DNA of 64,000 nucleotides from the NCBI GenBank assembly GCA_051891195.1, contig JBJFEZ010000061.1:10178-74177 (forward strand), read 5' to 3'. This DNA is from Clostridia bacterium (GTDB lineage: Bacteria; Bacillota; Clostridia; TANB77; CAG-508). The notes under the pieces were generated by a model. It saw nothing but the letters and a program-made list of their open reading frames with translations. It had not been told where the DNA came from and searched no databases. A program made the translations under genes and the position numbers. Below, one piece after another: positions 11,631 through 29,976 of this stretch. Numbering within the stretch: position 1 is the first letter of the stretch; the number at the start of each line of letters is the position of its first letter.

Positions 11631-12569
11631 TTAGTTTATTGCAAAGTTAATTCCCCTTGCAATAACATCTTTCATATTTTCTATTAAATCATCAATTTCT
11701 TTTGGTGTAACAATAAAATTATATTCCTCAGGTGCTAACACCTCTTTAATCATCTCGTATTTATCTTCTTCTTGTAATTGATTTAAAAATTCATTAGATT
11801 TAGCCTCGCTTTGCACTTTTTGAATAAACAAATCCAAGCTATCTGCAGCTATTGTTGCTGCTTCTACAACAGTTGGAACTCCTATAGCTATAACAGGTAT
11901 TCCTAGTGTGTCAATGGTTAATTCTTTTCTTTGATTTCCTACCCCCGCCCCTGGTATAATTCCTGTATCTGCAATTTGCACTGTACTACTTATTCTTTCT
12001 ATACTTCTTGAAGCCAATGCATCAATTACAATTAGTAGTTTAGGATGAATATTGTCAACTATTCCTTTTAGTATTTCTAGTGTTTCAATTCCTGTTGTTC
12101 CTAAAACTCCCGGAGACACTGCACTAACAGGTCTTGTATTTCTATCTAATACATCTGGCATATATGTTAGTAAATGCCTTGTAATATCAATTTCTTGTAC
12201 TACTTTTGGACCTAAAGCATCTGGAGTAACATATAAATTACCTAATCCTACAACTAATATAGGTTCTTGCTCTCCTGCTAAATTTTTTATTAAAACTTTT
12301 AATTCTTTTGTTAATGCTTCTGAAGCCTTTTGTATGTTATCTTGTGATGCAACTTTTAAATTTTTAATATCTAGTGTAATATAGCTTCCCTTCTTTTTTC
12401 CTATAGCTTTTTCCCCATTATCATTTAGTACCTTTACCCTAGTAATTTTAATATCTTCTCCTATATTTTCTTCTTGCGTTTCTATTCCTTCTACTTCGTT
12501 TGCAATATTATTAGCCTTTTTATATAAATCACGTCTTTCTAAAGCTAAATCTGTTCTAAAGTTAATCAT
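11631..12569 (-). CDS. gpr: Germination protease GPR (spore endopeptidase degrading SASPs)
   Basis: 312 aa, N-terminus MINFRTDLALE, and the overall pattern of GPR/HybD-like proteases. Confidence 0.8.
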   Translation of the reverse strand: MINFRTDLALERRDLYKKANNIANEVEGIETQEENIGEDIKITRVKVLNDNGEKAIGKKKGSYITLDIKNLKVASQDNIQKASEALTKELKVLIKNLAGEQEPILVVGLGNLYVTPDALGPKVVQEIDITRHLLTYMPDVLDRNTRPVSAVSPGVLGTTGIETLEILKGIVDNIHPKLLIVIDALASRSIERISSTVQIADTGIIPGAGVGNQRKELTIDTLGIPVIAIGVPTVVEAATIAADSLDLFIQKVQSEAKSNEFLNQLQEEDKYEMIKEVLAPEEYNFIVTPKEIDDLIENMKDVIARGINFAIN

Positions 12570-12699
12570 AAAAATACACCTTCTCTAAAAAAGTTTATTA
12601 ACTTTAGTATTTCCTTAAATTTTTATAAATATACTTAAATAAAGTTAAAATATACTTGATATTTTGTTTTTTTTTTGGTATTATATTAAGGTAATATAT

Positions 12700-12740
12700 G
12701 CAGGTGTGGCGGAATTGGCAGACGCACAGGACTCAAAATC
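12700..12740 (+). pseudogene. 5' fragment (acceptor arm to anticodon loop) of the host tRNA-Leu(CAA) gene cut by island insertion
   Basis: gcaggtgtggcggaattggcagacgcacaggactcaaaatc. Joined to 23411-23458 it rebuilds a perfect type-II tRNA-Leu(CAA): acceptor gcaggtg/cacctgc, anticodon stem cagga/tcctg. Confidence 0.85.
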
Positions 12741-12825
12741 TAAATGGATTTTTTTCGTGTTGAAACTTATAAGTATTGAAAATAGTAATGTTTAGATATT
12801 TGCTAGAGTTGAAAAATGCTCAAAC

Positions 12826-12844
12826 ATCTAACAAATATCTAACA
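12826..12844 (+). repeat. Two direct ATCTAACA repeats (candidate integrase arm-type sites) upstream of the island-borne tRNA
   Basis: catctaacaaatatctaaca. The same octamer occurs three times at 23222-23250. Confidence 0.35.
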
Positions 12845-12877
12845 TAATTGTAAAACCGCCAAAATTTAATAAAATAT

Positions 12878-12963
12878 GTCGATGTGGCGGAATAGGCAGA
12901 CGCACAGGTCTCAAAAACCTGCGGATAACATCCATGTGGGTTCGATTCCCACCATCGACACCA
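12878..12963 (+). tRNA. tRNA-Leu(CAA), class II with long variable arm, intact; appears to be island-encoded
   Basis: Folded by hand: acceptor gtcgatg/catcgac, anticodon stem caggt/acctg, loop ctCAAaa, variable-arm hairpin, T-arm gtggg-ttcgatt-cccac, 3' ACCA. Confidence 0.85.
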
Positions 12964-12968
12964 TATAA

Positions 12969-14240
12969 CTAATTACTTTGAGAAGATGAAGATGTGCTTT
13001 CTTCATTTTCTTTTTTTGTATCTGTAAATTTTAATGCATTAACCAGAGCATCTGCTGAAAGCTTTTTAGAATTAACATCTAAATGAGCATATAAATTAGC
13101 TGTAGTAGAAAAATTAGAATGACCAAGCCATTCTTGTATAGCTTTCATAGGAATACCTTTAGCAAGTAATAAACTCGCACAGGAATGCCTTAAATCGTGA
13201 AAACGAATATGTTTCATACCGATTTTATTTAATAATATACTAAAATGTTCTGAAATATAGTCAGGGCGAATTAATCTGCCTTGAGGATTAACAAAAACAT
13301 AATCTAAATATTTTCTATTATAAGTTTTTCCAAAAGCCTTTTTAAATGCTTCTTGTTTTTCTTTAAGTTCTAAAAGTTTATCTGCAATATCATCTAATAA
13401 AGGCAATGACCTATAACTAGATTTATTTTTTGTTTTGTCTTTGCATTCAATTTTTCTATTATTACCTTCTGTGTTTGTTACCGTAACAGTATGCTTTATA
13501 GTAAATGTTAGGTTTTCAAAATCAAATGAGTCCCATTTTAAACCTAAAACTTCACTTCTTCTTAAACCATAAAAAGCAGTAACTAAAATAATAACTTCTA
13601 AAGGATCACCTTTAGATTTCTCAAATAAAGTATTTAATTCAGTTTGAGTATAATAGCTTCCTATATATTGTTCTACTTTAGGTTTTTGAACTTTATCAGC
13701 TGGATTACTAGGAATAATATCCATTTTAAAAGCGTATTCTAAACATTTTCTTATAATGGCGTGATGATGCACAACAGTGTTGGCAGAAAGATGTTTTTCA
13801 ACCATTAATTCATTATAAAAATCTTGAATATGAACATGGGTTAGGTCTACTAACTTTATAGGATTTTCAGTAAAATATTTCTTGATATGATTATTGGATA
13901 TTTGCCTATAAGATGTGAACGTAGAATTTTCTACAGTATGCCTAATAATTTCTAGCCAATAAAAAAGATACTCTATAAAAAGAATATCACTTGAATTATT
14001 ATTTGATTTTGAATTGTTTAGAGCTTTTAAATTTAGTTCTTTTTCTAAATTTGCTCTTATTTCTTCAGCTTTTGCCATAGCTTGTTTTTTATTTCCGCGT
14101 TCTTTTAAACCAGTAGAACGCCAAGGTTGTTGTCTTTTTCCGTTTTCATCATAGTATTCTAAAACTGCTTGATATATTCCATTTCGAACAACAAGACTAC
14201 TTAGAGATACTTTAATTTGTTGTAAATTTTCTGTTACCAT
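12969..14240 (-). CDS. Tyrosine-type site-specific integrase
   Basis: 423 aa, C-terminal catalytic region HDLRHSCASLLLAKG..LGHSNFSTTANLYAHL (R..HxxR..Y). Immediately next to the tRNA 3' end. Confidence 0.9.
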   Translation of the reverse strand: MVTENLQQIKVSLSSLVVRNGIYQAVLEYYDENGKRQQPWRSTGLKERGNKKQAMAKAEEIRANLEKELNLKALNNSKSNNNSSDILFIEYLFYWLEIIRHTVENSTFTSYRQISNNHIKKYFTENPIKLVDLTHVHIQDFYNELMVEKHLSANTVVHHHAIIRKCLEYAFKMDIIPSNPADKVQKPKVEQYIGSYYTQTELNTLFEKSKGDPLEVIILVTAFYGLRRSEVLGLKWDSFDFENLTFTIKHTVTVTNTEGNNRKIECKDKTKNKSSYRSLPLLDDIADKLLELKEKQEAFKKAFGKTYNRKYLDYVFVNPQGRLIRPDYISEHFSILLNKIGMKHIRFHDLRHSCASLLLAKGIPMKAIQEWLGHSNFSTTANLYAHLDVNSKKLSADALVNALKFTDTKKENEESTSSSSQSN

Positions 14241-14318
14241 TATAAACTCCTTTCTGATGTAACAGACTAAATTAATTTACTATTGATTTTGTTCTTTGTA
14301 GTAAATATAAAATTTAGC

Positions 14319-14531
14319 CTAAACAACACTTTGATTTAATAAATAAGAAATAATATTTTGTTTAGGAATTTTATATTGTCTACCAACTTTTATAGACTTA
14401 ATAGTATTTTGCTTTACTAACCTATAAGCAAGAGTAATTCCTATGCCTAGCATTTCTGCTAATTGATTTACATTTACTACATCTTTATATGCAGTAAACA
14501 TAGTAGAGTAATTTTGTTTTAAATCTTTCAT
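14319..14531 (-). CDS. Excisionase/Xis-like small HTH DNA-binding protein
   Basis: 70 aa, helix-turn-helix LAEMLGIGITLAYRLVKQNTIKSIKVGRQYKIP (MerR-like Xis family). Directly upstream of int. Confidence 0.65.
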   Translation of the reverse strand: MKDLKQNYSTMFTAYKDVVNVNQLAEMLGIGITLAYRLVKQNTIKSIKVGRQYKIPKQNIISYLLNQSVV

Positions 14532-14635
14532 ACGATGACCTCCTTTTCAAAAATCTCAATAGCTAAATAATTTTCGCTATATGTATTGCGTATTGGATTT
14601 TGAGAAAGGTAAATCTCTTACTTGGTCTAATTTCT

Positions 14636-15082
14636 TTAAAAAGCATTCATACTAATTCTTTTTGGTGCATCAAAGCCAGCTTTAATTCCCTTTAGCATGA
14701 CAAATTGATTTTTAATACTATCATAAGCGTAAATACTAGAATTAGCTTTCTTAAAGGCATAGTCAGAAAGAGGATGAGGGTTATAAGAAAGTTCTATTGA
14801 ATCTTGTCTTTGTTGTTCTAATAATTGCTCGTAAGCGATATCTTTTTCTTTTTTTCTAACATAATTCTTCTGATATTCGGCTTGAGCAATTTTGCGTTTT
14901 TCTGCATTACTAGATTTTCTAGAACTTTTTTCATTTTCATATCGTCCATCTTTTTTGATTATTTTAGAAATATATTGTTGAGAAGCATTAACTATTTCTG
15001 CAATTTCTATTTGTTTTAAATGCTTATTAAAATATAAATCTAATATTTGCTCTTTCTTATCCAAAAAATTTCCTCCTTTCAT
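14636..15082 (-). CDS. Putative transcriptional regulator with a sigma-70 region-4-like HTH
   Basis: Start taken at MKGGNFLDKK, which has RBS aaaggagga just before it; the 40 upstream codons of the ORF track lack any start signal. Segment KEQILDLYFNKHLKQIEIAEIVNASQQYISKIIKK. Confidence 0.5.
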   Translation of the reverse strand: MKGGNFLDKKEQILDLYFNKHLKQIEIAEIVNASQQYISKIIKKDGRYENEKSSRKSSNAEKRKIAQAEYQKNYVRKKEKDIAYEQLLEQQRQDSIELSYNPHPLSDYAFKKANSSIYAYDSIKNQFVMLKGIKAGFDAPKRISMNAF

Positions 15083-15157
15083 TTGGTTGTATTTTTGTTT
15101 GTTGATTTTTAGATACAATAATCCTAATGACTTTTTTGGTGATTTTCCAAACAAAAC

Positions 15158-15186
15158 TTGACTATTGTCTATAAAAAAGATATAAT
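15158..15186 (+). promoter_or_regulatory. Consensus promoter (TTGACT, 17 nt, TATAAT) driving the Zn-ribbon/kinase cassette
   Basis: ttgact attgtctataaaaaaga tataat. A copy of this promoter region survives in the decayed second island (23668-23700). Confidence 0.5.
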
Positions 15187-15322
15187 AGTAATATCTTAAC
15201 AAGGTTTAACAATTATAAAATGTAATAATTACTATTAATCACTAATTACATTATAGAGTAATAATTCATACTTGTCAAGTATTACATATAAAATTTTTGA
15301 AAAAATTTTTAGGAGAGTGAAA

Positions 15323-16225
15323 ATGAAGAAAAATAATGAAGGAAATTTCAGAACTTTTTGGTTTAGATATGATAGTTATGAAATGCGAGAAATAGAAGAA
15401 AAACACTATATTACACCAAAAGAAAATTCAAAAGTAGTTATGTATGATCCATTTGATTTAGCAGATGACATATTAGTAGATATTTTAATGATAGGAAGAT
15501 GTGTTGAAAAAAATGACATAGAAGAATCTAATAAAATGATTATGGAATTTGTGGAGAAATATGGATTATTAGGAGAATTAACATATTTACCATTAAATAC
15601 TGATATAGTGGCACAAAACAAAGTTTATTTACCTAGTGGGAATTTAGTTAGTGATAAAGAAACATTACCTACTGCTGAATATATAGAGTTATTTTTAAAA
15701 TGTAGAAAGAAACAAAAAATCACTATGAAGAAAAATGCAAGAGGAGAAATTTTAGAATTGTCAGCAGAAAATGAAATGAACCCTGTTGTAGCCATAGATA
15801 GACCAGCTGAATATGCAGTTGTTTTCTCAAAGGCTTACTCAGAGTGTTTAGTTTGGATAATGCATTATGCAAGAACATTATATCAAACTTTTGAAGCAAT
15901 AGAAAATTATAGTAAAGTTGAAGATGCTTATACAAAGCAATTATATGATAATCGCATAAAGAATTTTAATCCATCAAAAATAGCTTGTAAGATATTAATG
16001 GGTAAAAATAAAGAAGACAAACCTGTTATAGAATGGAATTTTAATTCTTTAAAATTAGCAATAGATACAATGTTTGCTTTAAATGAAACTACTGAAAGAA
16101 AAACAGTAAAAATGTGTAAACATTGTGGTAAGCCATTTTCTTCTGAAAACTTGAAAGCTGAATATTGTAGCCCACAATGTAGAAATCAAGCAAATGTTTA
16201 TAAAAGTAGAGCAAAAAATAAATAG
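15323..16225 (+). CDS. Hypothetical protein with C-terminal zinc ribbon (CKHCGKP..x14..CSPQC); first gene of the HipA-like cassette
   Basis: Start MKKNNEGNF with RBS aggagagtg. No recognisable HTH. Confidence 0.55.
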   Translation: MKKNNEGNFRTFWFRYDSYEMREIEEKHYITPKENSKVVMYDPFDLADDILVDILMIGRCVEKNDIEESNKMIMEFVEKYGLLGELTYLPLNTDIVAQNKVYLPSGNLVSDKETLPTAEYIELFLKCRKKQKITMKKNARGEILELSAENEMNPVVAIDRPAEYAVVFSKAYSECLVWIMHYARTLYQTFEAIENYSKVEDAYTKQLYDNRIKNFNPSKIACKILMGKNKEDKPVIEWNFNSLKLAIDTMFALNETTERKTVKMCKHCGKPFSSENLKAEYCSPQCRNQANVYKSRAKNK

Positions 16226-16239
16226 AGTGGAGGAACTAA

Positions 16240-17197
16240 ATGATTGAATTAAAAAACTTTGATAATTGGGTAGAAGATATTGAATTTGGAAAATTCGGTA
16301 GTGGTGCAAGTGAAAAAGTTTGGCTTATTAATCCAGAAACAAACGAAAAAGGGCTTTTCAAATTTCCAAAAGTAAAGGATAAGGAAAAAGGAATAATAAC
16401 AGGAGAATATTGGGCTGAAAAACTTGCAACAGAAATAGGAAAATTAGTTGATGTAGAATGTGCCAAAGTAGATATTGGTATATATAAACGGAAGAATTGG
16501 CTCAATGAGTTATAACTTGGTAGAATATAGTTCAGAAGATAACTATACAAACCTATTAGAAGGTATAGTTTTTATAGAAAATCAGTATCCATATTATGAC
16601 AAAGATAAATTAGAGGATACTTATTCTAATAGTAAATATTCTATACAAATGATACAAAATAGTTTAAATGGAATATTAGAGATGGATAAATTTTATAAAA
16701 TTGTTATATTTGATATTTTGATAGGAAATAGTGATAGACATCATAGTAATTGGGCAATTTTAGCCAAAGGAACAGTATATAAGACTCCAGAAGATATGCT
16801 TGATATATTTTTTAATTATAATATGTGTCCTTTATATGATAATGGTTCATCATTATGTGCCTACGAAGATAATAATAATCTTGAAATATTTTTTAAAGAT
16901 AAAATGAAGTTTGAAGCATTAGTAAATACAAAGTCAAAATCTGCTATTGGATGGGAAAATGAAAGACCTATTAGACACTTTGAATTATTGAAAAAAATAA
17001 AAGACAATGCATATGAATTAACAGTACAATATATAGAAAAGATTAAAACTAATATTAATGAAGAAAATATAGATAAAATTTTAAATGAGTTTGATAATAA
17101 TATAATAAGTATAGATATGAAGAAATTATTAAAAATGTATCTTTTAGAACGAAGAAAAAGAATATTAGAGATATATGATTTGAAAGATGAGGTGTAA
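16240..17197 (+). pseudogene. HipA-like Ser/Thr kinase core (HipT-like, no N-subdomain 1), interrupted by a +1 insertion (c at 16489); possibly an artefact
   Basis: ORFs 16240-16515 and 16475-17197 overlap. Removing the c in aaa c gga aga gives a continuous ~318-aa protein with HipA motifs: FGSGASEKVWL (like GAQEK), GEYWAEKLATEIG, IFDILIGNSDRHHSNWAIL (catalytic D.H..N), CPLYDNGSS. Confidence 0.7.
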
Positions 17198-17204
17198 AAG
17201 AAAA

Positions 17205-17555
17205 ATGGAAAAAGATTTAGTATATTTAGTTTGGACAGATGTTAAAACAGGAAATAAATATAAAGTAGCTGAATTATATAAAATGAATAATGCTTTTTAT
17301 TTTAAGTATATTCTAGAAAATGTAAAAGAGGCTCAAAAAAGTGGTTTTAAATTATTAATTGCATTTCCTCAAATTAATGCTTTATATGATAATCCAAAAT
17401 TATTTGCTACTTTTGCAGCAAGATTACCAGAGCCTACAAGACCAGAAATAAAAGAGATTTTAGAAACTTATGGAATGACAGAATATGATGCGTTTGAATT
17501 ATTAAAAAGAAGTGGTGCAAAACTACCTACAGATAATTATGAATTTGTAAAATAA
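17205..17555 (+). CDS. HipA N-terminal-subdomain-like small protein (HipS-like) downstream of the kinase
   Basis: 116 aa; LVYLVWTDVKTGNKYKVAELYKMNNAFYFKY and LFATFAARLPEP resemble the HipA N-domain (VGEL..F.Y, FNFF.NLLPD). Start is 8 nt after the kinase stop, with RBS gaggtg. Confidence 0.5.
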   Translation: MEKDLVYLVWTDVKTGNKYKVAELYKMNNAFYFKYILENVKEAQKSGFKLLIAFPQINALYDNPKLFATFAARLPEPTRPEIKEILETYGMTEYDAFELLKRSGAKLPTDNYEFVK

Positions 17556-17581
17556 TTTAATATTTAATATTATTTATAATG

Positions 17582-17610
17582 TTGATTAGAAAATATCAAT
17601 ATGCTATAAT
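17582..17610 (+). promoter_or_regulatory. Promoter (TTGATT, 17 nt, TATAAT) for the serpin gene
   Basis: Read directly. Confidence 0.45.
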
Positions 17611-17661
17611 AATTTCAGTATAAGAGCTATTAACAAAAGAGTAAAATAGATAAAGGAGTGT

Positions 17662-18957
17662 ATGAAAATGCAAGAAAATAAAGAATTAAAAATCAAATTA
17701 AAAACAGCAATTATTTTAATTGTAATATTATTAATAGCAGTAGTAGCAATATTTGCATTAATAATGAATAAGGGAGACGAAATTGGTTCTAAAGGTGGTA
17801 GTACAATAGTTGGTAATGAATCAGAAAAACAACAAGCTATGGATACAGATTTTTCAATGAGTTTTTTAAAATTAGAAAATGATAAACAAAATATGATATA
17901 TAGCCCACTATCAATAAAATATGCATTAAAAATGCTAAACGAAGGTGCAAATGGAAATACTAAGACTCAAATAGAAAATGTAATAGGAGAATTAAATTTA
18001 ACAAAGTATAATAATATTGATAAAGTATTATCTTTAGCCAATGGTGTATATATTAGAGATACTTATGCTAAATATGTAAAAGAAGATTATAAAAAAATAC
18101 TAACTGAAAAATATAATGCTGAAATAAATTATGATTCTTTTAATAATGCTAATAATATAAACAATTGGATTGAGAATAAAACTTTAGGAATAATAAAAAA
18201 TATGTTAAAAGATGATTTAGTAAGAGATCCGCTTACAGAAATGCTTCTTATAAATGCCTTGGCTATTGATATGGAATGGGAAGAATCTTTTGATAGCAGT
18301 AAGACTTATGGAGAAGAATTTAATTTAGATAACGGAAACAAGATGATAGCAACAATGATGCATAAAGAAACAAAAAGTGATAATATATCATATTATAAAA
18401 ACAAAGATGTTACAGCTTTAACAATGGATTTAAAAGAATATAATGATACACAACTAGAGTTTATTGCGATAATGCCTGAAGAAAATCTGTCAGATTATAT
18501 AGAAAGTTTTACTATAGATGATTTTGATACTATTATAAAAAAATCAAAATTAGCTTCTAAAACTAAACATGGCGTAGACATTTCAATACCAAGATTTTCA
18601 TTTGATTATGATTTAAAACTTAAGAACGACTTGATAAAATTAGGAATAACAGATGCTTTCAGTGATCGCGTAGCCGATTTTTCTAATATGTCAAATAGAG
18701 AACTTTATGTTAGCGATGCATTACATAAAGCAAATATAGATTTCACTGAAAAAGGTGTTAAAGCTGCAGCAGTTACTGTAATTGTTATGGCAGACAAATC
18801 AATGGTAGCAACTCCTACTAAACCTGAAGAAATAAAAATAGATAAACCTTTCTTGTATATGATTAGAGATAAAAATACAGGAGAACTATGGTTTGTAGGA
18901 ACTGTTTATGAACCAAATTCTTGGGAAGATGATAAGGCAGATTATCAATATAGATAA
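17662..18957 (+). CDS. Serpin-family serine protease inhibitor with N-terminal membrane anchor
   Basis: 431 aa. N-terminal TM helix; hinge and reactive-centre-loop region EKGVKAAAVTVIVM; C-terminal KPFLYMIRDKNTGELWFVGTVYEP (serpin signature F..D.PF.F.I). Confidence 0.8.
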   Translation: MKMQENKELKIKLKTAIILIVILLIAVVAIFALIMNKGDEIGSKGGSTIVGNESEKQQAMDTDFSMSFLKLENDKQNMIYSPLSIKYALKMLNEGANGNTKTQIENVIGELNLTKYNNIDKVLSLANGVYIRDTYAKYVKEDYKKILTEKYNAEINYDSFNNANNINNWIENKTLGIIKNMLKDDLVRDPLTEMLLINALAIDMEWEESFDSSKTYGEEFNLDNGNKMIATMMHKETKSDNISYYKNKDVTALTMDLKEYNDTQLEFIAIMPEENLSDYIESFTIDDFDTIIKKSKLASKTKHGVDISIPRFSFDYDLKLKNDLIKLGITDAFSDRVADFSNMSNRELYVSDALHKANIDFTEKGVKAAAVTVIVMADKSMVATPTKPEEIKIDKPFLYMIRDKNTGELWFVGTVYEPNSWEDDKADYQYR

Positions 18958-18970
18958 ATTATAAAGTATA

Positions 18971-18995
18971 AAGGAGCTGTGTTGCTCCTTTTTTT
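18971..18995. terminator. Bidirectional terminator between the serpin and relaxase genes
   Basis: aaggagc tgtgtt gctcctt followed by ttttt. Confidence 0.6.
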
Positions 18996-20283
18996 ATCTA
19001 TCTCTATATTTATTTTTAGATTTAGCTTTTTCTTGCTGTTCAGCTTTTTGTCTTTCTTCTTTTAACTTTTGATGAAGCTCATATATTTTAATTTTATCTA
19101 TTCTACTTTGAATATTATCACAATGTCTTATTTCTTCAGCAAGTGGTGTAATCTTTTTAGAAATTTCTACAATTTGATTTTCAATATTTTTCTTTTCATC
19201 TTCAGTTTTAGCTCTTTTATGCTTTTTCCATAAGTTTTCTCTTTCACTTTTTAGAGGATTAATTTTATCATAAGCAGATTTTTTAAAATCAAACAATCCT
19301 TGCTCCGTATTAATCTTATATTTAGCTAAAAATTTTGCTTGATTTGAATATTCATCCATTTGTTTTATTTCTTTTAACAATTCTGGAGTTATTCTTGTTA
19401 TATTCGATTTTGAGACTTTTTCTACATTTATACCTAATAATTTCTCATAATGAAATATCAAACCAAGAATAGAGCTTTTATTTTGAAGGTAACTTTCTTT
19501 TATATTGTTATATTTTTGAAAAGTTCTGTCAAGTAATGATTTAGGATTAGGAGTGTATGGAAAACGTGGCTGAGTTTCTAATATTCTTTTATAAATATTT
19601 TCTTTTGAATATTTATTTCCAAATTGTCTTTCAATTCTAGTGTTTCTTTTATAAGGCTCTCGCCTAATTGATAAAGTATCATTTTTATCAGTAACAATAT
19701 AATCTAAATCTTGAAGAATTTTTATAAACTCATTATAATCTTTTGCATTTTCTATTGCATAATCAATAGAATCTTTCATTAACTCTTTATATAAACTACT
19801 TGAAGCATATTTATTATATTTTTCTTCTTGTTTTAAAACACTTAATCCATAATCTTCACAAAGTCTATCAGATGTTTTTCGCATAGTAGCATAATCCTTT
19901 TTAGTATTGCAAAATCTTTTTCCATCTAGGAAAGAAACAGAGTTTAAAACAAAATGATTATGAATATTATCAGTATTTAAATGAGTTGAAACAACTACTT
20001 GATATTTATCTCCCCATAGCTCTTCAGCAAGTTTTATTCCAATTTCATGTGCTTGTTCTGGAGTAACCTCTTTTTCAGCAAAAGATTGAATTGCATGAAA
20101 ACATTCAATACCACCTGTTTTAAAAAATTGTTTTTTTACATTCTTCATTTCATAAAAAGCAGTATCGGGCATACAATTTATACCTGATACATATAGCTTG
20201 TGTTCGGTTTTTTCTCCATTAATTGCATATTCGATAAGACTGTCTAATCTGCTCTTGAATTTCCATATTTTTGTTGTAGCCAT
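18994..20283 (-). CDS. MOBV-family mobilization relaxase (MobM/Pre-like)
   Basis: 429 aa, HLNTDNIHNHFVLNSVSF (H.DE..H.H-type motif in MOBV relaxases), coiled-coil C-terminus. Confidence 0.75.
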   Translation of the reverse strand: MATTKIWKFKSRLDSLIEYAINGEKTEHKLYVSGINCMPDTAFYEMKNVKKQFFKTGGIECFHAIQSFAEKEVTPEQAHEIGIKLAEELWGDKYQVVVSTHLNTDNIHNHFVLNSVSFLDGKRFCNTKKDYATMRKTSDRLCEDYGLSVLKQEEKYNKYASSSLYKELMKDSIDYAIENAKDYNEFIKILQDLDYIVTDKNDTLSIRREPYKRNTRIERQFGNKYSKENIYKRILETQPRFPYTPNPKSLLDRTFQKYNNIKESYLQNKSSILGLIFHYEKLLGINVEKVSKSNITRITPELLKEIKQMDEYSNQAKFLAKYKINTEQGLFDFKKSAYDKINPLKSERENLWKKHKRAKTEDEKKNIENQIVEISKKITPLAEEIRHCDNIQSRIDKIKIYELHQKLKEERQKAEQQEKAKSKNKYRDR

Positions 20284-20620
20284 TTGAAGCTCCTTTCTTT
20301 TGAGGAGTAAGATAAACTTCTTGCATACTTAAAACAAAATCTTGTATTTGATTTAATAATGGTGTAAATTTATCTTCTCTCATATAACCTTGATATCTGT
20401 TATGAGTTCTTGCCATCTGATTTAAATTGTTTGCCATATTTCTTAATAAAGAAAGTATTTCATAAAATCTTTCATCAGGTTGTTCTCTTAATTGATAATC
20501 TGAAATGATTTTTCTGAAAAATTCTGATTTGTTCAATCCAGATTTTTTTACTTTTTCATCAAAGATTTTTTTCTCTTCTTCATTTAAGAAAACATTAATT
20601 TTTATATTACGATTTCTCAT
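20219..20620 (-). CDS. mobC: MobC-type relaxosome accessory protein
   Basis: 133 aa, ..KINVFLNEEEKKIFDEKVKKSGLNKSEFFRKIISD.. (MobC ribbon-helix-helix family). Upstream of the relaxase and overlapping it. Confidence 0.7.
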   Translation of the reverse strand: MRNRNIKINVFLNEEEKKIFDEKVKKSGLNKSEFFRKIISDYQLREQPDERFYEILSLLRNMANNLNQMARTHNRYQGYMREDKFTPLLNQIQDFVLSMQEVYLTPQKKGASNGYNKNMEIQEQIRQSYRICN

Positions 20621-20679
20621 AAAATTTCACCTCACTTTCTAAAAAATTCTTTATAATTTCTTTTTGGTTTAAAATAGGG

Positions 20680-20770
20680 TTTGGGACTTGTCCCATTCTT
20701 GATAGTATTTGTGGCGTGAGTACAAATACGTTGCTTGCATATTCAAGAAATCTAAAGAGTACTCACATTC
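20680..20770. promoter_or_regulatory. Candidate oriT upstream of mobC
   Basis: Inverted repeats gggac/gtccc (20683-20694) and gtgagtac/gtactcac (20716-20723 and 20759-20766) in the mobC 5' region. Confidence 0.3.
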
Positions 20771-20849
20771 AAAATCTCTTAATATTACTTACTGAAAGAA
20801 AAAATAAGGCACAAAATTTTAAAAATTGTGCCTTAAAGTTATTAAATTT

Positions 20850-21176
20850 CTATCTTAAAATTCCAATTTTTTTGAAGAAAAAGTAAGCCTCTTTACCACC
20901 TAAAAAGAATATTTCTTTTTCCTCAATTGATTGCATATCATAATAAATTTCTACTAATTTTGAGAGAGCTGTACACTCTTTATTTGATAAATTTCTGTTT
21001 TCAGTTTGACCTTCTAAAATCCAAACTAGATTTTCATTTTCATCTAAAATTTTATGATATTTTTCTTGTAATTTTATATATTTTTGATTTTTCTTTCTTA
21101 AAATTCTTTTAACATCATCTAAATATTCTTCAAACATATCTTCATATTCTTTATAAAATGATTTTATTTCTAACAT
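20850..21176 (-). CDS. Hypothetical protein; its N-terminus is conserved in the decayed second island
   Basis: 108 aa. MLEIKSFYKEY is also the N-terminus of ORF 24882-25118. Confidence 0.45.
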   Translation of the reverse strand: MLEIKSFYKEYEDMFEEYLDDVKRILRKKNQKYIKLQEKYHKILDENENLVWILEGQTENRNLSNKECTALSKLVEIYYDMQSIEEKEIFFLGGKEAYFFFKKIGILR

Positions 21177-21187
21177 AACTATTCCTC

Positions 21188-21541
21188 CTAAACATATATC
21201 AATTCTTTTAATATAATTTCTTCTGCAGAGTGTTTTATATTATTCATTAATCCAACCCATTTTAGTTGGTCTTTTGCTTTTAATTCTTCAGTAATATTTT
21301 CTTTTGCTGCATATTGTTTCATTAATAAGTCAAATCTTTCATTAGCAATTTTATCAATTTCCGTTAAATGTTTTTGTAATTTATTATCCATTAGCAAAAT
21401 GGTATATTCAGCTTTCTTATGTTCTTTAAGATATTTAAGTCTTAATTTTCCGTATTTTCCTATTTCAAAATTTTTCATATTACTTGGTGCTACTAAATTT
21501 GGTAAATAGTAATCGCCAACTTTTGTATATTCAATTTTCAT
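21188..21541 (-). CDS. TnpV-like conserved mobile-element protein
   Basis: 117 aa. MKIEYTKVGDYYLPNL N-terminus, typical of Firmicute transposon TnpV-like proteins. 3' part duplicated at 25120-25268. Confidence 0.45.
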   Translation of the reverse strand: MKIEYTKVGDYYLPNLVAPSNMKNFEIGKYGKLRLKYLKEHKKAEYTILLMDNKLQKHLTEIDKIANERFDLLMKQYAAKENITEELKAKDQLKWVGLMNNIKHSAEEIILKELIYV

Positions 21542-21549
21542 ATTAAATC

Positions 21550-21995
21550 AATTCCTTTCATTTTTATTTATAGAAACTTGAGGGAGAGAGCGAAGATAAT
21601 TAGGCGTAATAATCCCAATGTTTAAAAAAGGATTATTACACCTAGAGAATAAGAAACCGTCAGTCGGTCGCTTCGTTTCATAGGTAGTCTAGTAAGTAGA
21701 AGAACTACTACAATTGCTGATAATTTATCAATGTGCATACTTGTCCACACTTTTTACAATTGCAAATCCACATCCAAGCTTTGCCTCCCAAGAACTCTTT
21801 TATTATTGTGAGTCTATGGTTGTAAAATCTCACTCACGCACTTTGTATAAATAGACCGTTTATACTAATACGGGCTAATTTTATAGCATCGGCTTGCCAA
21901 ACCTAGTACTTTTATAGAGGTACTGCATTTCTCTGCATAATAAAAAGACTCCATTAGTAATTTAGACAATTACTAATAGAATCTTCAAATATAAT
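21550..21995. other. GC-richer (~38-40%) non-coding stretch with several hairpins; no ORF of 60 aa or more in any frame
   Basis: Compositional contrast with the flanks. Hairpins aggcgtaataatcc/ggattattacacct, gtgagt..actcac, agtac..gtact. Confidence 0.3.
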
Positions 21996-21999
21996 TAGT

Positions 22000-23139
22000 T
22001 TAATTTAAATTTTTAATTTCGGTATATCGATTGTAAAGTTTATTTATTAAAGTATCTAATTCTTCTGTCATTTCAATTTCTTTGTAGTAGTATTGTTTAA
22101 TAAGTTTTAATTCATGACTACTTACTTGTATATCAAGAAAAGTCAATCCTTGACAATAGCTTTCATTTGGATTACCAGTAAAATTTGGATCAATACTTCT
22201 TTCATATAAAACTGTTACTATATATTCTAATAATTCATTTTTGGTGAAGGCTCCTTGTTTGAATTTTTCTAATAATGGTGATGTCTTGAAAAAGATTTCT
22301 TTCATTAATTTTAAGTTTGTATGAATACCATTTCCTAAATCTAAATATGCATCATCAGGGATTATTCTATCATTTGAGACTGTTCCAGAATAATCAGCCT
22401 TCTTTATTTTTTCAGCATATCCCATTAAATTAACAGGAGGCATAACAATATTATTAATTGCTGTCATCATTAATAAATAAAATAAATATAAATTATTTTC
22501 TAATTTATCTTCATGTGTAACCAATATGGTATTATCAGTAGGAACAATTTCAATTTCTTTAAAACCATGTCTATTTATACCAAAAATTAATCCTTTATCC
22601 AAAATGCATACAATGCTTAACCTATTTTTTATATCTATACTATTATTAAACTCATCAATTTTTTTAACAATGTTATTTAAACTGGTGTCACTAGAATATG
22701 CAAATATCATGCATATTGGTGGAATAATAGAAGAAATTATTAAAGGAGATGAGAAAGGTTTTGTTTTTTCTAACTTTTTTACACTTTCTATATTTTTAAT
22801 ACTTTTCTCTAGTTCATCAACTGTTAGTGTTGATTTTACTTCAATAGTAGCATAGACACTCTCAATAGGAATTACTTGTACACTTTCAGTTTCCATTAAT
22901 TTAGGGCTATTAAAGTTATCATAAATTATAAAATCTTGTTGCCTACTTTGAGTTTCATTAGCATCAACAATAACTCCATTTCCTATAGCATATTTAGTTG
23001 GAAAAAGTTTAGATAAATATTCTTTTAATTTATCCTCTCTAATTGTTCCTTTTAATCCATTATGCTCAATTTTACTACTTAATTTTTGATAATCACTTTG
23101 TAAATTCTTTGCCATTTCTTGTAAATTATAAATAAACAT
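22000..23139 (-). CDS. Hypothetical protein with N-terminal PD-(D/E)xK nuclease-like motif (candidate defence or abortive-infection nuclease)
   Basis: 379 aa. ..GTIREDKLKEYLSKLFPTKYAIGNGVIVD..SRQQDFIIYD..IPIESVYATIEVKS fits a D..(D/E)xK core. No other family recognised. Confidence 0.4.
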   Translation of the reverse strand: MFIYNLQEMAKNLQSDYQKLSSKIEHNGLKGTIREDKLKEYLSKLFPTKYAIGNGVIVDANETQSRQQDFIIYDNFNSPKLMETESVQVIPIESVYATIEVKSTLTVDELEKSIKNIESVKKLEKTKPFSSPLIISSIIPPICMIFAYSSDTSLNNIVKKIDEFNNSIDIKNRLSIVCILDKGLIFGINRHGFKEIEIVPTDNTILVTHEDKLENNLYLFYLLMMTAINNIVMPPVNLMGYAEKIKKADYSGTVSNDRIIPDDAYLDLGNGIHTNLKLMKEIFFKTSPLLEKFKQGAFTKNELLEYIVTVLYERSIDPNFTGNPNESYCQGLTFLDIQVSSHELKLIKQYYYKEIEMTEELDTLINKLYNRYTEIKNLN

Positions 23140-23221
23140 ATTTATTCCTCCATACTATGAAATTTTCCTAATTATATCATATTTTCGTAAAAAATAAAAT
23201 CAATAATAAATAGTCTATTAC

Positions 23222-23250
23222 ATCTAACATATCTAACAAAACATCTAACA
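23222..23250 (+). repeat. Three direct ATCTAACA repeats (candidate arm-type recombinase-binding sites) near the island right end
   Basis: catctaacatatctaacaaaacatctaaca. Confidence 0.35.
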
Positions 23251-23403
23251 TTTTTTCAAAAAACTTGCAAAAAGTATAAAAACTATGTTATAGTTTAATA
23301 AGTAAGAAAAACGACGATGAGTGCTAGAAAATCCATAGTTTTGAGCTTTCTAAAAAGTAATATTTAATACTAAAAATAAATAAGTATAAAATAGCTTAAA
23401 AGA

Positions 23404-23458
23404 CTCAAAATCCTGCGAAGTAACATTCGTGTGGGTTCGACCCCCACCACCTGCACCA
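23404..23458 (+). repeat. 3' half of tRNA-Leu(CAA), anticodon loop to CCA; attR-side partner of the 12700-12740 fragment
   Basis: ctcaaaatcctgcgaagtaacattcgtgtgggttcgacccccaccacctgcacca. Preceded by non-tRNA sequence, followed by terminator 23465-23498. Confidence 0.85.
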
Positions 23459-23498: not shown

Positions 23499-23659
23499 AT
23501 TAAAGACCTAAGTCTTCTGCCTGTGCTTTTGTGACAATGTGTATTCCCTGTTTAATAAGGATATCTTTGAGTATTTCCATATGAAATTCTTAATACATTT
23601 AAAGAACATAGCTATAATATCATATTTATGTAAATCTGTCAAAAATTTTTAAGCGATTA

Positions 23660-23866
23660 CCAAACAAAACTTGACTATTGTCTATAAAAAGATATGATAG
23701 TTATGAAATGCGAGAAATAGAAGAAAAATGCAAGAGGAGAAATTTTAGAATTGTCAGCAGAAAATGAAATGAACCCTGTTGTATCCATTGGATAGAAGAT
23801 AAAGTTTCTGGTAAGTTCGGTAGTGGTGCAAAACTTCCAACTGATAATTATGAATTTGTAAAATAG
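23660..23866 (+). pseudogene. Patchwork remnant of the Zn-ribbon / HipA-like / HipS-like cassette
   Basis: Consecutive segments match 15147-15180 (promoter), 15369-15400, 15735-15795, 16275-16315 and 17520-17555 of the intact island. Confidence 0.7.
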
Positions 23867-24030
23867 TTATAATACTAATAATAAAAAGATAGAATAATTG
23901 ATAGCAGAAATAATAATTGAATACTGAAAAAAATTACAAAATAAAAATATTTGGTTTTAACTTGTCATAATTATAATATTATGCTATATTAAATTAGAAT
24001 AATAATTATTAATTAAAGGGGAAATAGAAA

Positions 24031-24750
24031 ATGAAAAAAGTTAAAATAGCAATAATTACTTTGATATGTTTAGTAATAATATTAATAGGAACTATTTTTA
24101 TTATTAAATTACAGTCTATAAGTGAAATTTCGGATTATATAGTATTTAAAACAGCTAATTATGAATCAATAGAAGATGTGGTTTTTTATAGCAAAGACTT
24201 AAATTTAGATGATGAATTGAAAGATAATCTTACTATAATAGCAAATCAATTAAAAGTAAAATATCCTGGTAAAAGTATCTTATATTTAAGAAATCTAGGA
24301 AGTGCTTCACTTTTTGACGCTAAGGAATTATATAGATGTATGCAAATCATAAATGGACAAAAATTAGACGATACAGATATGAATGTATTAATTAAAGAAG
24401 ATGGAAGTGTTGAAATCCAATTTTTAATTAGATGTGCTTGGAAAAGTGGAAGTGATATTGACAATGTCCAAATAACACAAGAACAAGCTGAAAAAATTGT
24501 AATAGATTATTTGTATAAAAATCCAGATGATTATAAAGTATTAAGAAGTGGTTTTAATTTTACATTTAATTCTGCTACTCACGAAATGAGTAAAGTTAAT
24601 ACTGAAACATGTACAGTTGAGTTGTACAAATATAATTCTAAAACAGCTTGGAAAATGCAATTTTCAACAGGTGATAGTTATATAATAATAGATGCTAATA
24701 CTGGTAAGATTTTAGATACATACTTTTTTTGTGGAATTTACGTAGATTAA
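24031..24750 (+). CDS. Hypothetical membrane-anchored protein (PepSY-like C-terminal motif), cargo of the decayed island
   Basis: 239 aa, N-terminal TM helix, ..YIIIDANTGKILD.. near the C-terminus. Confidence 0.45.
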   Translation: MKKVKIAIITLICLVIILIGTIFIIKLQSISEISDYIVFKTANYESIEDVVFYSKDLNLDDELKDNLTIIANQLKVKYPGKSILYLRNLGSASLFDAKELYRCMQIINGQKLDDTDMNVLIKEDGSVEIQFLIRCAWKSGSDIDNVQITQEQAEKIVIDYLYKNPDDYKVLRSGFNFTFNSATHEMSKVNTETCTVELYKYNSKTAWKMQFSTGDSYIIIDANTGKILDTYFFCGIYVD

Positions 24751-24881
24751 ATGTGATTAAAAAATTTTCAAAGATATACAATATCCATTAATAGTTATTG
24801 TATATCTTGTTTTTTTATCTCCAAACCTCTCTATTTTTAACCTTAACTTTGCTATTTCCTTCTTGACTCATTTCTTTAATA

Positions 24882-25118
24882 TTATTTTTCGTTCTTAAAA
24901 GTATTGTCTTCAATAAAATCACATAGTTTAATATTTTTATTTAATTCATCTATTTTAGTGGCTAATTTTTGAATTTTAGAGCAAATAAATTGACCTTCTT
25001 CATCAGTTTTAATTCTTTTGCGCTTTCTCCATAAGTTTTCTCTTAATCTTTTTAATTCAACTATTTTATTTATAAGTGAAGATTTATATTCTTTATAAAA
25101 TGATTTTATTTCTAACAT
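24882..25118 (-). pseudogene. Chimeric remnant: N-terminus of the 20850-21176 gene family fused to a relaxase C-terminal fragment
   Basis: MLEIKSFYKEY.. then ..RENLWRKRKRIKTDEEGQFICSKIQKLATKIDELNKNIKLCDF, which parallels relaxase residues ..RENLWKKHKRAKTEDEKKNIENQIVEISKKITPLAEEIRHCDN. Confidence 0.55.
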
Positions 25119-25119
25119 A

Positions 25120-25268
25120 ACAATTCCTCCTATACATATATCAATTCTTTTAATATAATTTCTTCAACAGAATGCTTTATATTATTCATTAATCCAACCC
25201 ATTTTAGTTGGTCTTTTACTTTTAATTCTTCAGTAATATTTTCTTTTTCTGCAAATTGCTTCATTAAT
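25120..25268 (-). pseudogene. Truncated copy of the tnpV-like gene 5' region with its RBS
   Basis: About 90% nucleotide identity to 21176-21325. Confidence 0.6.
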
Positions 25269-25431
25269 ACATCCAACATTTTTTCAAAAAACTTGCAAAA
25301 AGTAAAAAGACTATGTTATAATTAAGCAAGTAAGAAAAACGATGATGAGTGCTAGAAAATCCATAGTTTTGAGCTTCTTAAAAAGTAATATTTAATACTA
25401 AAAATAAATAAGTATAAAATAGCTTAAAAGA

Positions 25432-25485
25432 CTTAAAATCCTGCGAAGTAACATTCGTGTGGGTTCGCCCCCACCATCTGCACCA
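25432..25485 (+). repeat. Second, more degenerate copy of the tRNA-Leu 3' half (outermost att repeat)
   Basis: cttaaaatcctgcgaagtaacattcgtgtgggttcgcccccaccatctgcacca: one deletion in the T-loop and two substitutions relative to 23404-23458. Confidence 0.75.
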
Positions 25486-25665
25486 CAAATTAGTTTGATA
25501 AGGATAATTGATTTTTAAGATTTTGTTTCTTATCTATGTTATATACAAGCAATCAACAAATTATGAAAATTTAAAATATAGGCAAAAAATATAGAAAAGG
25601 CTTTAGAGCATCTAGAAAATAAATATCAAGAAAAAACTTTTAAATATATAGGAGGAAATTATTAA

Positions 25666-26859
25666 ATGTTTAAGTTTATTAAAAATGAGAATATAGAAAC
25701 AAAAATTACAGAGGAATATATTTCAATTTTAGAAAATGATTTGCAAATAAAGTTTCCTAAAATATTGAGAGATTATTATTTGAAATATAATGGAGCTGAA
25801 ATAGAAGAATGTAAATTAATAATTCAAATGGGTGCTTATAATATTAATTGCTATGTAACTGAAATTTTAACTTTAAAATATGGTAAATATAATTTTGAGC
25901 ATGAAGCTAAATATATTAGAGATATTGAAAATATACCAAATGAATTTATACCTTTTGCAATAGATGAGGGATCAGATAGATTTTGTTGGGATTATAGTAC
26001 AGGCAAAGTATATTATGTTAGAATGGACGAAGAAAATCCAATATTAATTTGTGATAGTGTAGAACAATTTTTTGATATATTAACTGATTGTGTAAAAAAT
26101 GAAAATGGTTGTACGTTAGATGGAAAAGAAGATTTTAATTATAGTTCTTCAACACCAATAGGAACAGAAAAGAACAATCTTAAAGAAGAATCTGAGGTAA
26201 AAAAAATATTAACATTTAACAGCAAAAATAAACCATTAATATTACTTTTTGTACTAACAATAGCCAGTCTAATACTTATACCATTTACTGATTCACTATC
26301 TTTGTTATTAACTGGTGCTTTTGCTATATATACATTGATATTATTAGGTATACATATTACAAATAGAATTAAATCAATAAATGTAGTAAATAAATATGGT
26401 TTTGATGAATTGAAAAAAGAATTGCTTTCAAATAATACTATAAAGGTAGAAGGAATAAATACATACCTTACAGAAAAATATATTATTTCAAATCACCAAA
26501 AAGTAGTAATAATAGAATATAAAGATATTTCTTGGATTTATCCTACAAGAATTAGAGGTAGAAATAGTATAACGGCTCATATTAGTGCATATCTTGCAAA
26601 TAGAATGACGGGAACACCTTTAAGAGCACATCTAAAAAATGGGAAATCTTTAATTTCTGCTATAACTAATAATAGAAAGCAAGTGCAAATTATATTTAAT
26701 AGAATACATCAGAAAAACAACCAAGTTTTAATTGGTTATAACAAAGATAATATGAAAAAATATGAAAAAGTATGTCCAAAATATAAAAATAAAAAAATTT
26801 GGGGAATTCTTTTAGTAATAGCACTTGTTATAATAGCTATATTAATACAAAAAATTTAA
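25666..26859 (+). CDS. SMI1/KNR4 (SUKH) immunity-like domain fused to a two-TM segment and a C-terminal domain of unknown function
   Basis: 397 aa. N-terminal ~150 aa (ILENDLQIKFPKILRDYYLKYNGAEI..FIPFAIDEGSDRFCWDYSTGKVYYV..FFDIL) fits the SUKH-1 pattern. Hydrophobic helices at 190-240 and at the C-terminus. Confidence 0.5.
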   Translation: MFKFIKNENIETKITEEYISILENDLQIKFPKILRDYYLKYNGAEIEECKLIIQMGAYNINCYVTEILTLKYGKYNFEHEAKYIRDIENIPNEFIPFAIDEGSDRFCWDYSTGKVYYVRMDEENPILICDSVEQFFDILTDCVKNENGCTLDGKEDFNYSSSTPIGTEKNNLKEESEVKKILTFNSKNKPLILLFVLTIASLILIPFTDSLSLLLTGAFAIYTLILLGIHITNRIKSINVVNKYGFDELKKELLSNNTIKVEGINTYLTEKYIISNHQKVVIIEYKDISWIYPTRIRGRNSITAHISAYLANRMTGTPLRAHLKNGKSLISAITNNRKQVQIIFNRIHQKNNQVLIGYNKDNMKKYEKVCPKYKNKKIWGILLVIALVIIAILIQKI

Positions 26860-29707: not shown

Positions 29708-29902
29708 AGTAGCCTCCTTATTATATTGAAAGTATATCATAAAGAAATTTTTGTTACAATCATTTATATTAAAAATTCAAGGGAATTTCATTGTTTATTA
29801 CAAAATTGTAATATTTTATAAATAGATAGGAGTTCTAAACAGTAGAGTTATAGGGGCTTTCATTAAATTCCCCCTTTCAAAGCAGCAATCTTGATATTTT
29901 AT

Positions 29903-29931
29903 TTGACTATACACATTTTAAGTGTTATAAT
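29903..29931 (+). promoter_or_regulatory. Consensus promoter (TTGACT, 17 nt, TATAAT) for the 80-aa gene
   Basis: ttgact atacacattttaagtgt tataat. Confidence 0.5.
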
Positions 29932-29976
29932 AGATTTTACAAGTTTAATTAAATATTTTAGGAGGAGAGTTTTTTT

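Follow-up and report, generated by a model that had tools for sequence, protein, structure and literature searches.

Why should a bacterial chromosome carry a tRNA-Leu(CAA) gene that has been cut in two within its anticodon loop, and why should a second, complete tRNA-Leu(CAA) gene of different sequence lie between the halves? The locus that raises this question is in a 64-kb stretch of a low-G+C gut Clostridia genome, called the window here, and all coordinates are positions within it unless another locus is named. A sequence-only reading had proposed that an island had inserted into the host gene and supplied a replacement. The answer suggested by the present analysis, with a probability of roughly four in five, is that an integrative mobilizable element (IME) entered the anticodon loop of a gpr-linked tRNA-Leu(CAA) gene through recombination by its tyrosine integrase and brought a replacement tRNA with it. 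The anatomy of the locus, the empty site in relatives, the conservation of the arrangement across a family of elements and the intact integrase (int), excisionase (xis) and attachment (att) sites can all be seen directly. The element occupies 12741-23401 (~10.66 kb), between the tRNA halves, and the features on which the argument turns are as follows.

12656-12684, plus strand: promoter-like site for the host tRNA-Leu (TTGATA-17-TATTAT, preceded by TG; 10 of 12 matches), ~15 nt 5' of the 5' half
12700-12740, plus strand: 5' half from the host gene for tRNA-Leu(CAA), ending in the attL core GACTCAAAATC (12730-12740); matches the uninterrupted tRNA of 31 species at 100% identity
12741-12877, plus strand: P' arm (spacer), starting TAAATGGATTTTT, with two direct ATCTAACA sites resembling arm-type sites (12826-12833, 12837-12844)
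12878-12963, plus strand: complete tRNA-Leu(CAA) borne by the element (the cargo tRNA), E-type, 86 nt, CCA encoded, discriminator A73; called by ARAGORN, Rfam tRNA 59.2 bits (gathering score 29)
12969-14240, minus strand: 423-aa tyrosine integrase, convergent with the cargo tRNA; Pfam Phage_integrase PF00589, 1.7e-24, with SAM-like domains
14319-14531, minus strand: excisionase or recombination directionality factor, 70 aa; Pfam HTH_17, 2.1e-10; NCBIfam TIGR01764 'excise', 35.6 bits against a cut-off of 28.8
23190-23401, plus strand: P arm, with three ATCTAACA sites, a promoter-like site, an inverted motif like the core and, close to the core, a stretch that hardly varies
23402-23458, plus strand: attR core GACTCAAAATC (23402-23412) and 3' half of tRNA-Leu(CAA) (23413-23458); matches the uninterrupted gene of 31 species at 100% identity

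Joining 12700-12740 to 23413-23458, where the 3' half terminates, gives an 87-nt tRNA-Leu(CAA) that is called by ARAGORN, with CCA encoded and with the acceptor, anticodon, long variable and T arms all paired. The sequence-only reading was thus right that the host tRNA can be rebuilt from two halves, although the two pieces that it named, of 41 and 55 nt, would double the 9-nt core if placed end to end, and the block shared by the junctions, which it gave as ctcaaaatc, is in fact the 11-nt direct repeat GACTCAAAATC. In the untouched window ARAGORN calls only two tRNAs, one of which is the intact gene at 12878-12963, and neither junction, attL or attR, yields a tRNA call. Comparison of the split and intact genes indicates that their acceptor stems differ: the strands GCAGGTG/CACCTGC of the split gene pair mutually, as do the strands GTCGATG/CATCGAC of the cargo gene, in which all seven pairs are Watson-Crick. 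Given that each pair of strands is matched within its own gene, the intact gene is not a hybrid between a host 5' part and an element 3' part. Furthermore, the sequence past the attL core (TAAATGGATTTTT...) is not tRNA-like, so that attP holds no restoring tRNA fragment of the kind found in a classical restoring island. Since neither junction restores the gene and a different, complete tRNA-Leu(CAA) lies within, the claim that the element cuts the host tRNA and brings its own stands. The further claim that this att arrangement is unusual holds only for the lack of restoration; attP is centred on the anticodon in 2083 of 3919 Islander islands, in which restoration by an island-borne fragment is the norm (PMC4383910).

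An exact 84-nt scan of species genomes with the rebuilt gene identified an uninterrupted copy in 31 of them, from uncultured gut Clostridia, Clostridium sp. CAG:508 and CAG:567. In seven of the 31 (L008, L014, L022, L023, L024, L027 and L030; loci used for comparison carry L numbers) the left flank, consisting of gpr (germination protease, 11631-12569), the intergenic promoter and the 5' half, aligns unbroken up to the core, and the one tRNA-Leu that the empty-site relatives hold here has the same sequence as the joined fragments. Downstream of their tRNA, homology to the window resumes at 27422-29725, within a homologue of window 27410-29740 (six of the seven, with downstream sequence in the fetched locus; L023 excepted), and where the interval was read (L008, L014) a hairpin and T-run stand ~30-40 nt past the tRNA, with the homologue of a 776-aa gene coming next. 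Given that these relatives run from gpr through the tRNA to the 776-aa gene homologue, the chromosome in the window is interrupted from 12741 to ~27409. The insertion into the anticodon loop is therefore confirmed both by the positions of the junctions and by an uninterrupted allele at the syntenic, gpr-linked site. The extent first proposed for the island (12700-23458) falls short of the insertion tract, which continues to ~27410; only there does the native flank begin. The relatives also carry a tRNA-Gly(TCC) ~2.4 kb 3' of the tRNA-Leu (L008:2888-2961), which the window lacks there; no fragment of it was found at window 29726-29990, and synteny stops at ~29725. A split of this tRNA-Gly by another element was considered and rejected: the window just lacks the gene, and the place is non-syntenic.

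Homologues of the integrase abound in human-gut metagenomes. The context of nine integrase clusters, together with the island-bearing loci from the tRNA scan, gave 24 loci whose integrases are 62-100% identical, and one order is seen in all 24: a 39-41-nt 5' half of a tRNA-Leu(CAA), a spacer, an intact tRNA-Leu(CAA) and a convergent int. In each, the 5' half runs on as CTCAAAAT(C)|TAAATGGA, the spacer holds two ATCTAAC sites and the cargo tRNA-Leu(CAA) starts 129-140 nt past the loop; in the window it starts 137 nt from the core, on the P' side of attP and in the orientation of the target. Both ends of the element are visible in four lineages (10.67 kb in the window, 9.48 kb in L034, 11.35 kb in L037 and 8.52 kb in L055), and in all four the 5' and distal 3' halves rebuild a tRNA-Leu(CAA). 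The loop CTCAAAA is common to all targets and cargo genes seen. The anticodon stems of the targets vary (CAGGA, CTGGA, CAGCA, CCAGA, CATGA, CACGA), as do their acceptor stems, and each of the four cargo alleles has seven of seven Watson-Crick acceptor pairs and A73. Hybrids of a target 5' part and a cargo 3' part would have an acceptor stem with one to three non-Watson-Crick positions in every lineage, pairing at only 5-6 of 7 positions. The 86-nt E-type gene of the window recurs, identical, beside an 83%-identical integrase among different host genes (L034-L036).

Targets and cargo also exchange places between loci. The split host tRNA of the window (H-type) is found, 100% identical, as the cargo of elements that split a GCCGATG-type tRNA; among the loci compared (L003, L010, L020, L025, L026 and L052-L054), it is cargo in L003 and L052. 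Similarly, the GCCGTTG/CAGCA type is the target in L034, yet the cargo in L037, L042 and L055. Two relatives have decayed and are immobilised: in L013 (4683-5000) the 5' half, core and early spacer are deleted, the host promoter is fused to mid-spacer and int is intact, while L009 (4253-5900) lacks the spacer and 5' half and has an int broken into open reading frames (ORFs) of 197 and 136 aa. The cargo tRNA is intact in both, and given that it survives this decay, the foreign tRNA is now the resident gene.

The identity block between attL and attR is 11 nt in the window, 10 nt in L055 and 9 nt in L034 (ACTCAAAAT), and this reduction in L034 places the crossover in the loop CTCAAAA. The reconstructed attP, ...TTAAAAGACTCAAAATCTAAATGGATTTTT..., shares only 9-11 bp with the tRNA, that is, the 7-nt loop and flanking bases. 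Its core, TTAAAAGACTCAAAATCTAAATGG, is essentially the same in the four two-ended lineages, one base differing in L055. The predicted attP junction is AAAGACTCAAAATCTAAATGG (longer form GCTTAAAAGACTCAAAATCTAAATGGATTTT) and the predicted attB junction CAGGACTCAAAATCCTGCG (longer form CACAGGACTCAAAATCCTGCGAAG). On the P' side, the spacer and both ATCTAACA sites are conserved in L003, L010, L020, L025 and L026 (alignment A1) and present too in L034, L037 and L042. On the P side, the three copies lie at 23222-23229, 23231-23238 and 23243-23250, followed at 23265-23294 by a promoter-like site (TTGCAA-18-TATAGT with TG) that faces the core and, in the circular form, the cargo; these blocks are kept in L034, L037 and L055, with 3-4 ATCTAAC sites, down to 65% integrase identity (alignment A2). 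There are nine exact copies of ATCTAACA in the 64 kb, and five of the nine fall in the two short clusters that flank the core. The direct repeats that had been proposed as arm-type sites are exact at their positions, and these positions are unchanged in elements with integrases 65-83% identical. The ATCTAAC(A) clusters, of which the P' side has two copies and the P side three, are probably bound by the integrase as arm sites, to judge from this conservation.

Both arms hold inverted motifs in addition. At 12790-12808 of the P' arm, 5' of the two direct ATCTAACA sites, the motifs GTTTAGAT and TGCTAGAG (TGTTAGAG in relatives) resemble the arm sites imperfectly and in inverted orientation; they are conserved in alignment A1. 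At 23327-23345 of the P arm, GAAAATCCATAGTTTTGAG is an inverted copy of the core plus P' start CTCAAAATCTAAATGGATTTT of the reconstructed attP (23404-23412 joined to 12741-12752); its TTTTGAG is retained in four of five aligned P arms and reads TTTTGGG in L055. RNAfold pairs this motif with the core and P' start in the transcript of the P-arm promoter, and it could be an extra site for the integrase or an accessory protein, or form an RNA or DNA hairpin. The P-arm repeat also suggested assembly of the split tRNA in trans, as in Nanoarchaeum. This was rejected as unsupported, and the complete cargo gene makes it needless; bacteria are not known to have the splicing endonuclease with which Nanoarchaeum unites the halves of its split tRNAs.

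The presence of a tyrosine integrase within the island, as first read, is confirmed by the Pfam match and by intact catalytic motifs (GLRRSE, HDLRHS and LGHS...NLYAH, the R...HxxR...H...Y pattern of the C-terminal domain), and the closest relatives of solved structure are 3nkh and 6emy, the Int of Tn1549. The excisionase adjoins int in every family member. The remaining genes of the element are listed below.

14636-15202, minus strand: Sigma70_r4-like helix-turn-helix protein, weak Pfam match
15272-16225, plus strand: 317-aa protein of the conserved core block, no assignment
16240-16515, plus strand: 91-aa protein of the conserved core block
16475-17197, plus strand: HipA_C-like protein, 240 aa, weak Pfam match
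17187-17555, plus strand: HipA N-terminal-like ('Couple_hipA') protein, 122 aa, weak Pfam match
17662-18957, plus strand: full-length serpin (serine protease inhibitor), a passenger gene; Pfam Serpin, 9.1e-73
18994-20283, minus strand: MobA/VirD2-type relaxase; Pfam Relaxase, 2.8e-40, NCBIfam relaxase matches sub-threshold
20219-20620, minus strand: NikA-like ribbon-helix-helix accessory protein; Pfam NikA-like, 1.7e-17
20850-21176, minus strand: DUF6664 protein, by domain match
21188-21541, minus strand: TnpV, by domain match
22000-23139, minus strand: DUF6602 protein, by domain match

On this gene content the element is classified as an IME: an integrase, a directionality factor and att sites with a shared core are joined by a relaxase, with neither pore nor coupling proteins and with no origin of transfer (oriT) located. 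No capsid, tail, terminase, lysis or repressor genes were found among the island ORFs, which sets it apart from a temperate phage, and no coupling protein or type IV secretion genes (VirB4, VirD4, FtsK-like) were found among the 13 island ORFs scanned. The TnpV, DUF6664, NikA-like and relaxase genes are shared with L034, the serpin is absent from it and its slot there is filled by other genes, and the core block from 14636 to 17555 has the same gene set and order in L034-L036. Within this block, the HipA_C and Couple_hipA ORFs stand in reversed domain order and both fall below Pfam cut-offs. As the pair (16475-17555) is kept in L034-L036 it is not a recent pseudogene, and it may represent a split or permuted HipA-like kinase.

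Taken together, these features suggest how the element would operate. The integrase would bind the core and recombine attP with the anticodon loop of the chromosomal tRNA-Leu(CAA) downstream of gpr. Given that attP shares so few bases with the tRNA, neither junction regenerates the gene, and the complete tRNA-Leu(CAA) of the element would take over, compensating for the split gene from its position behind the host promoter. The region of this promoter is conserved in L008 and L014, which have the empty site. In the integrated state the promoter is directed across attL and the spacer towards the cargo tRNA, and the interval from it to 12963 showed no terminator-like site; the cargo would thus be expressed by read-through from the host promoter or, in the circular form, from the P-arm promoter. 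The adjacent excisionase would reverse the reaction, with exact restoration of the host gene, and the relaxase and NikA-like pair would let a conjugative helper mobilize the excised circle for transfer. A match confined to the loop would make tRNA-Leu(CAA) genes with differing acceptor stems usable as targets. Given that the hybrids are mismatched in the acceptor stem, a restoring attP would give defective tRNAs in occupied hosts; a complete cargo gene would avoid such hybrids and leave the loop as the sole sequence requirement.

The interruption of the chromosome does not stop at the end of the element, and the following features lie between its attR and the native flank.

23657-25429, plus strand: heavily deleted remnant of an older related element, in blastn pieces of 39-187 nt, 83-100% identical and collinear with 15144-21327
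25266-25525, plus strand: second attR-like copy, with a P arm (93.7% identical to 23238-23458) and a decayed tRNA-Leu 3' half
25666-26859: accreted DNA with a SUKH/SMI1-KNR4 protein that has a DUF6709-like tail, by domain match
26931-27293, minus strand: 120-aa ORF in a more G+C-rich stretch, no Pfam match
27410-29740, minus strand: restart of the native chromosomal flank with the 776-aa gene, by synteny with relatives

The remnant pieces keep the order and orientation of the current island, and the same tract holds unrelated ORFs (24031-24750, PepSY-like); Pfam scans of the remnant ORFs gave nothing useful. In the decayed 3' half (25430-25485) the anticodon now reads TAA, the T-loop has lost 1 nt and there is one acceptor change. 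The ~40 nt that follow it match the stretch of L037 that separates the cargo tRNA from the integrase end, and the decayed half was therefore once in the cargo tRNA of an older element, which a later element used as attB. To judge from these remains, at least two to three related insertions took place here one after another, extending the tract to ~27410, and the 3' half and terminator that the chromosome originally had can no longer be seen.

Several observations weigh against integration with a replacement tRNA as set out here. The predicted attP junction was not found, either as exact 31-nt and 21-nt patterns in JGI metagenome contigs and IMG/VR or as a 20-nt pattern in the 58 fetched loci, a search that is uninformative, given that the family is mostly in ENA and Logan assemblies and that the collections searched cover these organisms poorly. 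Exact integrase and Gpr look-ups returned a single other contig with the exact element, likewise integrated, and thus no polymorphic empty site in the same strain. The N-terminal 90 residues of the integrase show only a weak match to Arm-DNA-bind_4, below the cut-off (E = 0.093, 12.8 bits). No convincing promoter lies directly 5' of the cargo; a 9/12 site at 12848-12875 was rejected as its own promoter, being too near the gene and not conserved in elements with H-type cargo. Another tRNA-Leu(CAA), or a UUG-reading tRNA-Leu(UAA), may lie beyond the 64-kb window, in which case replacement may not be required. Finally, given the stacked insertions, the perfect 3' half at 23402-23458 need not be the one that the chromosome first had and may derive from the H-type cargo of an older element.

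It could be argued that the integration is real and the cargo tRNA does not compensate for the split gene, being instead a passenger, a means of resistance to an anticodon nuclease or an adjustment of codon usage. UUG decoding may be redundant in this genome, an anti-defence role has been raised as a possibility for phage tRNAs (PMC10865867), and the HipA-like and DUF6602 genes of the island are possibly conflict-related. However, this is unlikely for three reasons: first, the cargo matches the isotype and anticodon of the target in 24 of 24 loci, at a fixed distance (129-140 nt) and in a fixed orientation. Second, the cargo is intact in L009, where int is pseudogenised, and in L013, where the attL core is lost, which indicates selection on it after the split. 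Third, more distant relatives that have only a 3' half carry no complete tRNA.

A second alternative accepts the replacement and takes the island for a fossil, integrated once and now immobile, with the split tRNA dead and permanently replaced. The failure to detect attP or a circular form in the collections searched would fit such a history, as would a locus full of decayed relatives and the evidence from L013 and L009 that family members become fixed. Set against this, the int, xis, relaxase and NikA-like ORFs are full length, the catalytic motifs of the integrase, both cores and all five arm-type sites are intact, and the tRNA halves are 100% identical to the functional allele while the older half at 25430-25485 has decayed. 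The integrase cluster at 97% identity has 291 member sequences, which suggests recent spread, and immobility of this island is accordingly considered quite improbable.

A tRNA, a convergent int and a distal 3' fragment are also the standard signature of a classical restoring island (PMC4383910), on which account the intact tRNA would be the regenerated host gene and the 41-nt fragment an unrelated leftover such as a tandem duplicate; L009, with a tRNA beside int and neither spacer nor 5' half, has just this appearance. This account is very improbable, given that the intact gene pairs with itself in the acceptor stem and the two fragments pair with each other, that the single tRNA-Leu at the empty site is identical to the joined fragments, and that the E-type gene recurs beside int in hosts with a different split target; the int of L009, in 197-aa and 136-aa ORFs, marks it as a decayed derivative. 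An assembly or binning artefact joining contigs at tRNA-like repeats is scarcely credible, for although many related loci come from metagenome-assembled genomes and contig L001 stops inside the island at a repeated stretch, an independent Logan contig (SRR30616833) is 100% identical over 5.7 kb that take in attL and its flanks, and the architecture recurs in 24 loci with differing target and cargo alleles from many samples and assemblers.

The classical layout is found further out among the relatives of the integrase. At 57% identity (L047, L048), int is preceded by two ATCTAAC sites, a core and the 3' half of a tRNA-Tyr(GTA), without a 5' half, at 47-49% (L059-L061) the neighbour is a tRNA-Ser(CGA) or its 3' half, and at 60% (L045) there is no tRNA beside the integrase. 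L047:11231-11560 and L060:2760-2870 show this layout with no 5' half in the contig. The tRNA types of the wider family (Leu, Tyr, Ser) are all class II, with long variable arms. From these neighbourhoods, the wider family is one of ordinary anticodon-loop integrases of tRNA genes (tDNA), among which the tRNA-Leu(CAA) clade has switched to disruption and replacement. No close homologue of the integrase was found in IMG/VR (best 37% identity); relatives in GenBank phage records are at most 49% identical, on small unannotated faecal scaffolds, and those on plasmids at most 41%.

The arrangement in the window resembles tRNA-dependent lysogeny, in which the target tRNA is not restored and the phage encodes the cognate tRNA, as shown experimentally in actinobacteriophages (Guerrero-Bustamante & Hatfull, mBio 2024, PMC10865867). 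The phages concerned include Fionnbharth, LeBron, Cain, BrutonGaster and Gaia, with cores of 8-17 bp; Gaia targets tRNA-Leu-CAA with its own tRNA beside int, and the requirement for the phage tRNA was shown for Fionnbharth (PMC10865867). The island has the three sequence-level hallmarks of that process: an attB that overlaps a tRNA gene, a short core that does not restore it and a cognate tRNA carried along. The parallel extends to a tyrosine integrase acting at the anticodon loop, a core of similar size (9-11 bp here), the lack of a tRNA at attL or attR, the same anticodon in target and cargo, putative arm-type sites flanking the core, and close integrase relatives that do restore, as in the Boilgate/Fionnbharth and Omega/Gaia pairs (PMC10865867). 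Unlike these temperate phages of Actinobacteria, the island is free of phage genes, mobilizable and resident in low-G+C gut Clostridia; its tRNA lies inside attP, 129-140 nt from the core, in the orientation of the target and behind the host promoter, and the requirement for it, which is experimental in the phages, is inferred here. Its integrase resembles those of Firmicute elements (Tn1549-like), judged by matched domains. A suspected case in a Firmicute, the Lj965 prophage of Lactobacillus johnsonii, is mentioned as not rebuilding the tRNA at the junction and carrying a cognate tRNA (PMC10865867, refs 47-49); on that brief account it is similar to the island in being a non-restoring Firmicute element with a cognate tRNA and differs in being a prophage.

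Two other classes of element share parts of the arrangement. Classical tDNA islands (Islander class A; Williams 2002; Hudson et al. 2015, PMC4383910) have the anticodon-loop crossover with symmetric anticodon stem flanks, int adjoining the tRNA 3' end and a displaced 3' fragment at the far end. They bring the 3' part of a tRNA only, so that attL is a functional hybrid, whereas the attP of the island is tRNA-derived only at its core and brings a whole extra gene. Firmicute IMEs with a Tn916/Tn1549-type integrase and a MobA/VirD2 relaxase, and clostridial mobilizable elements bearing TnpV, are built from the same modules (int, xis, relaxase, ribbon-helix-helix accessory protein and TnpV, in ~10 kb with no conjugation pore). 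A limited, literal literature search turned up no published mobilizable element that both cuts a tRNA gene and supplies another in its stead. The principle is thus already known from phages, and what is new here is its occurrence in a non-phage class of element and in Clostridia.

Island finders that seek an intact tRNA and its own fragment will misplace the boundaries of such elements and may report the tRNA of the element as the host gene. By the same token, tRNAs beside integrases may be xenologous replacements, which matters for tRNA complements and for the completeness of metagenome-assembled genomes. An integrase whose attB needs little beyond the conserved loop, together with a portable tRNA, is a candidate tool for DNA integration in hard-to-engineer Clostridia, as has been proposed for mycobacterial tRNA-dependent integration. 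The prevalence of tRNA-dependent lysogeny outside the actinobacteriophages was stated to be unknown (PMC10865867), and the same logic in a widespread non-phage island of gut Clostridia indicates that the strategy belongs to integrases generally and is not phage-specific. This raises the possibility, put forward only tentatively and on balance doubtful, that bringing one's own tRNA serves this family as a strategy for integrating across a broad range of hosts and, in addition, drives the horizontal replacement of tRNA-Leu(CAA) genes among gut Clostridia. If this were true, any tRNA-Leu(CAA) would be a target, the cargo of a resident element included (compare the second 3' half and integrase-end remnant in the window), and decay of attL or int, as in L013 and L009, would make the foreign tRNA a permanent gene of the host.

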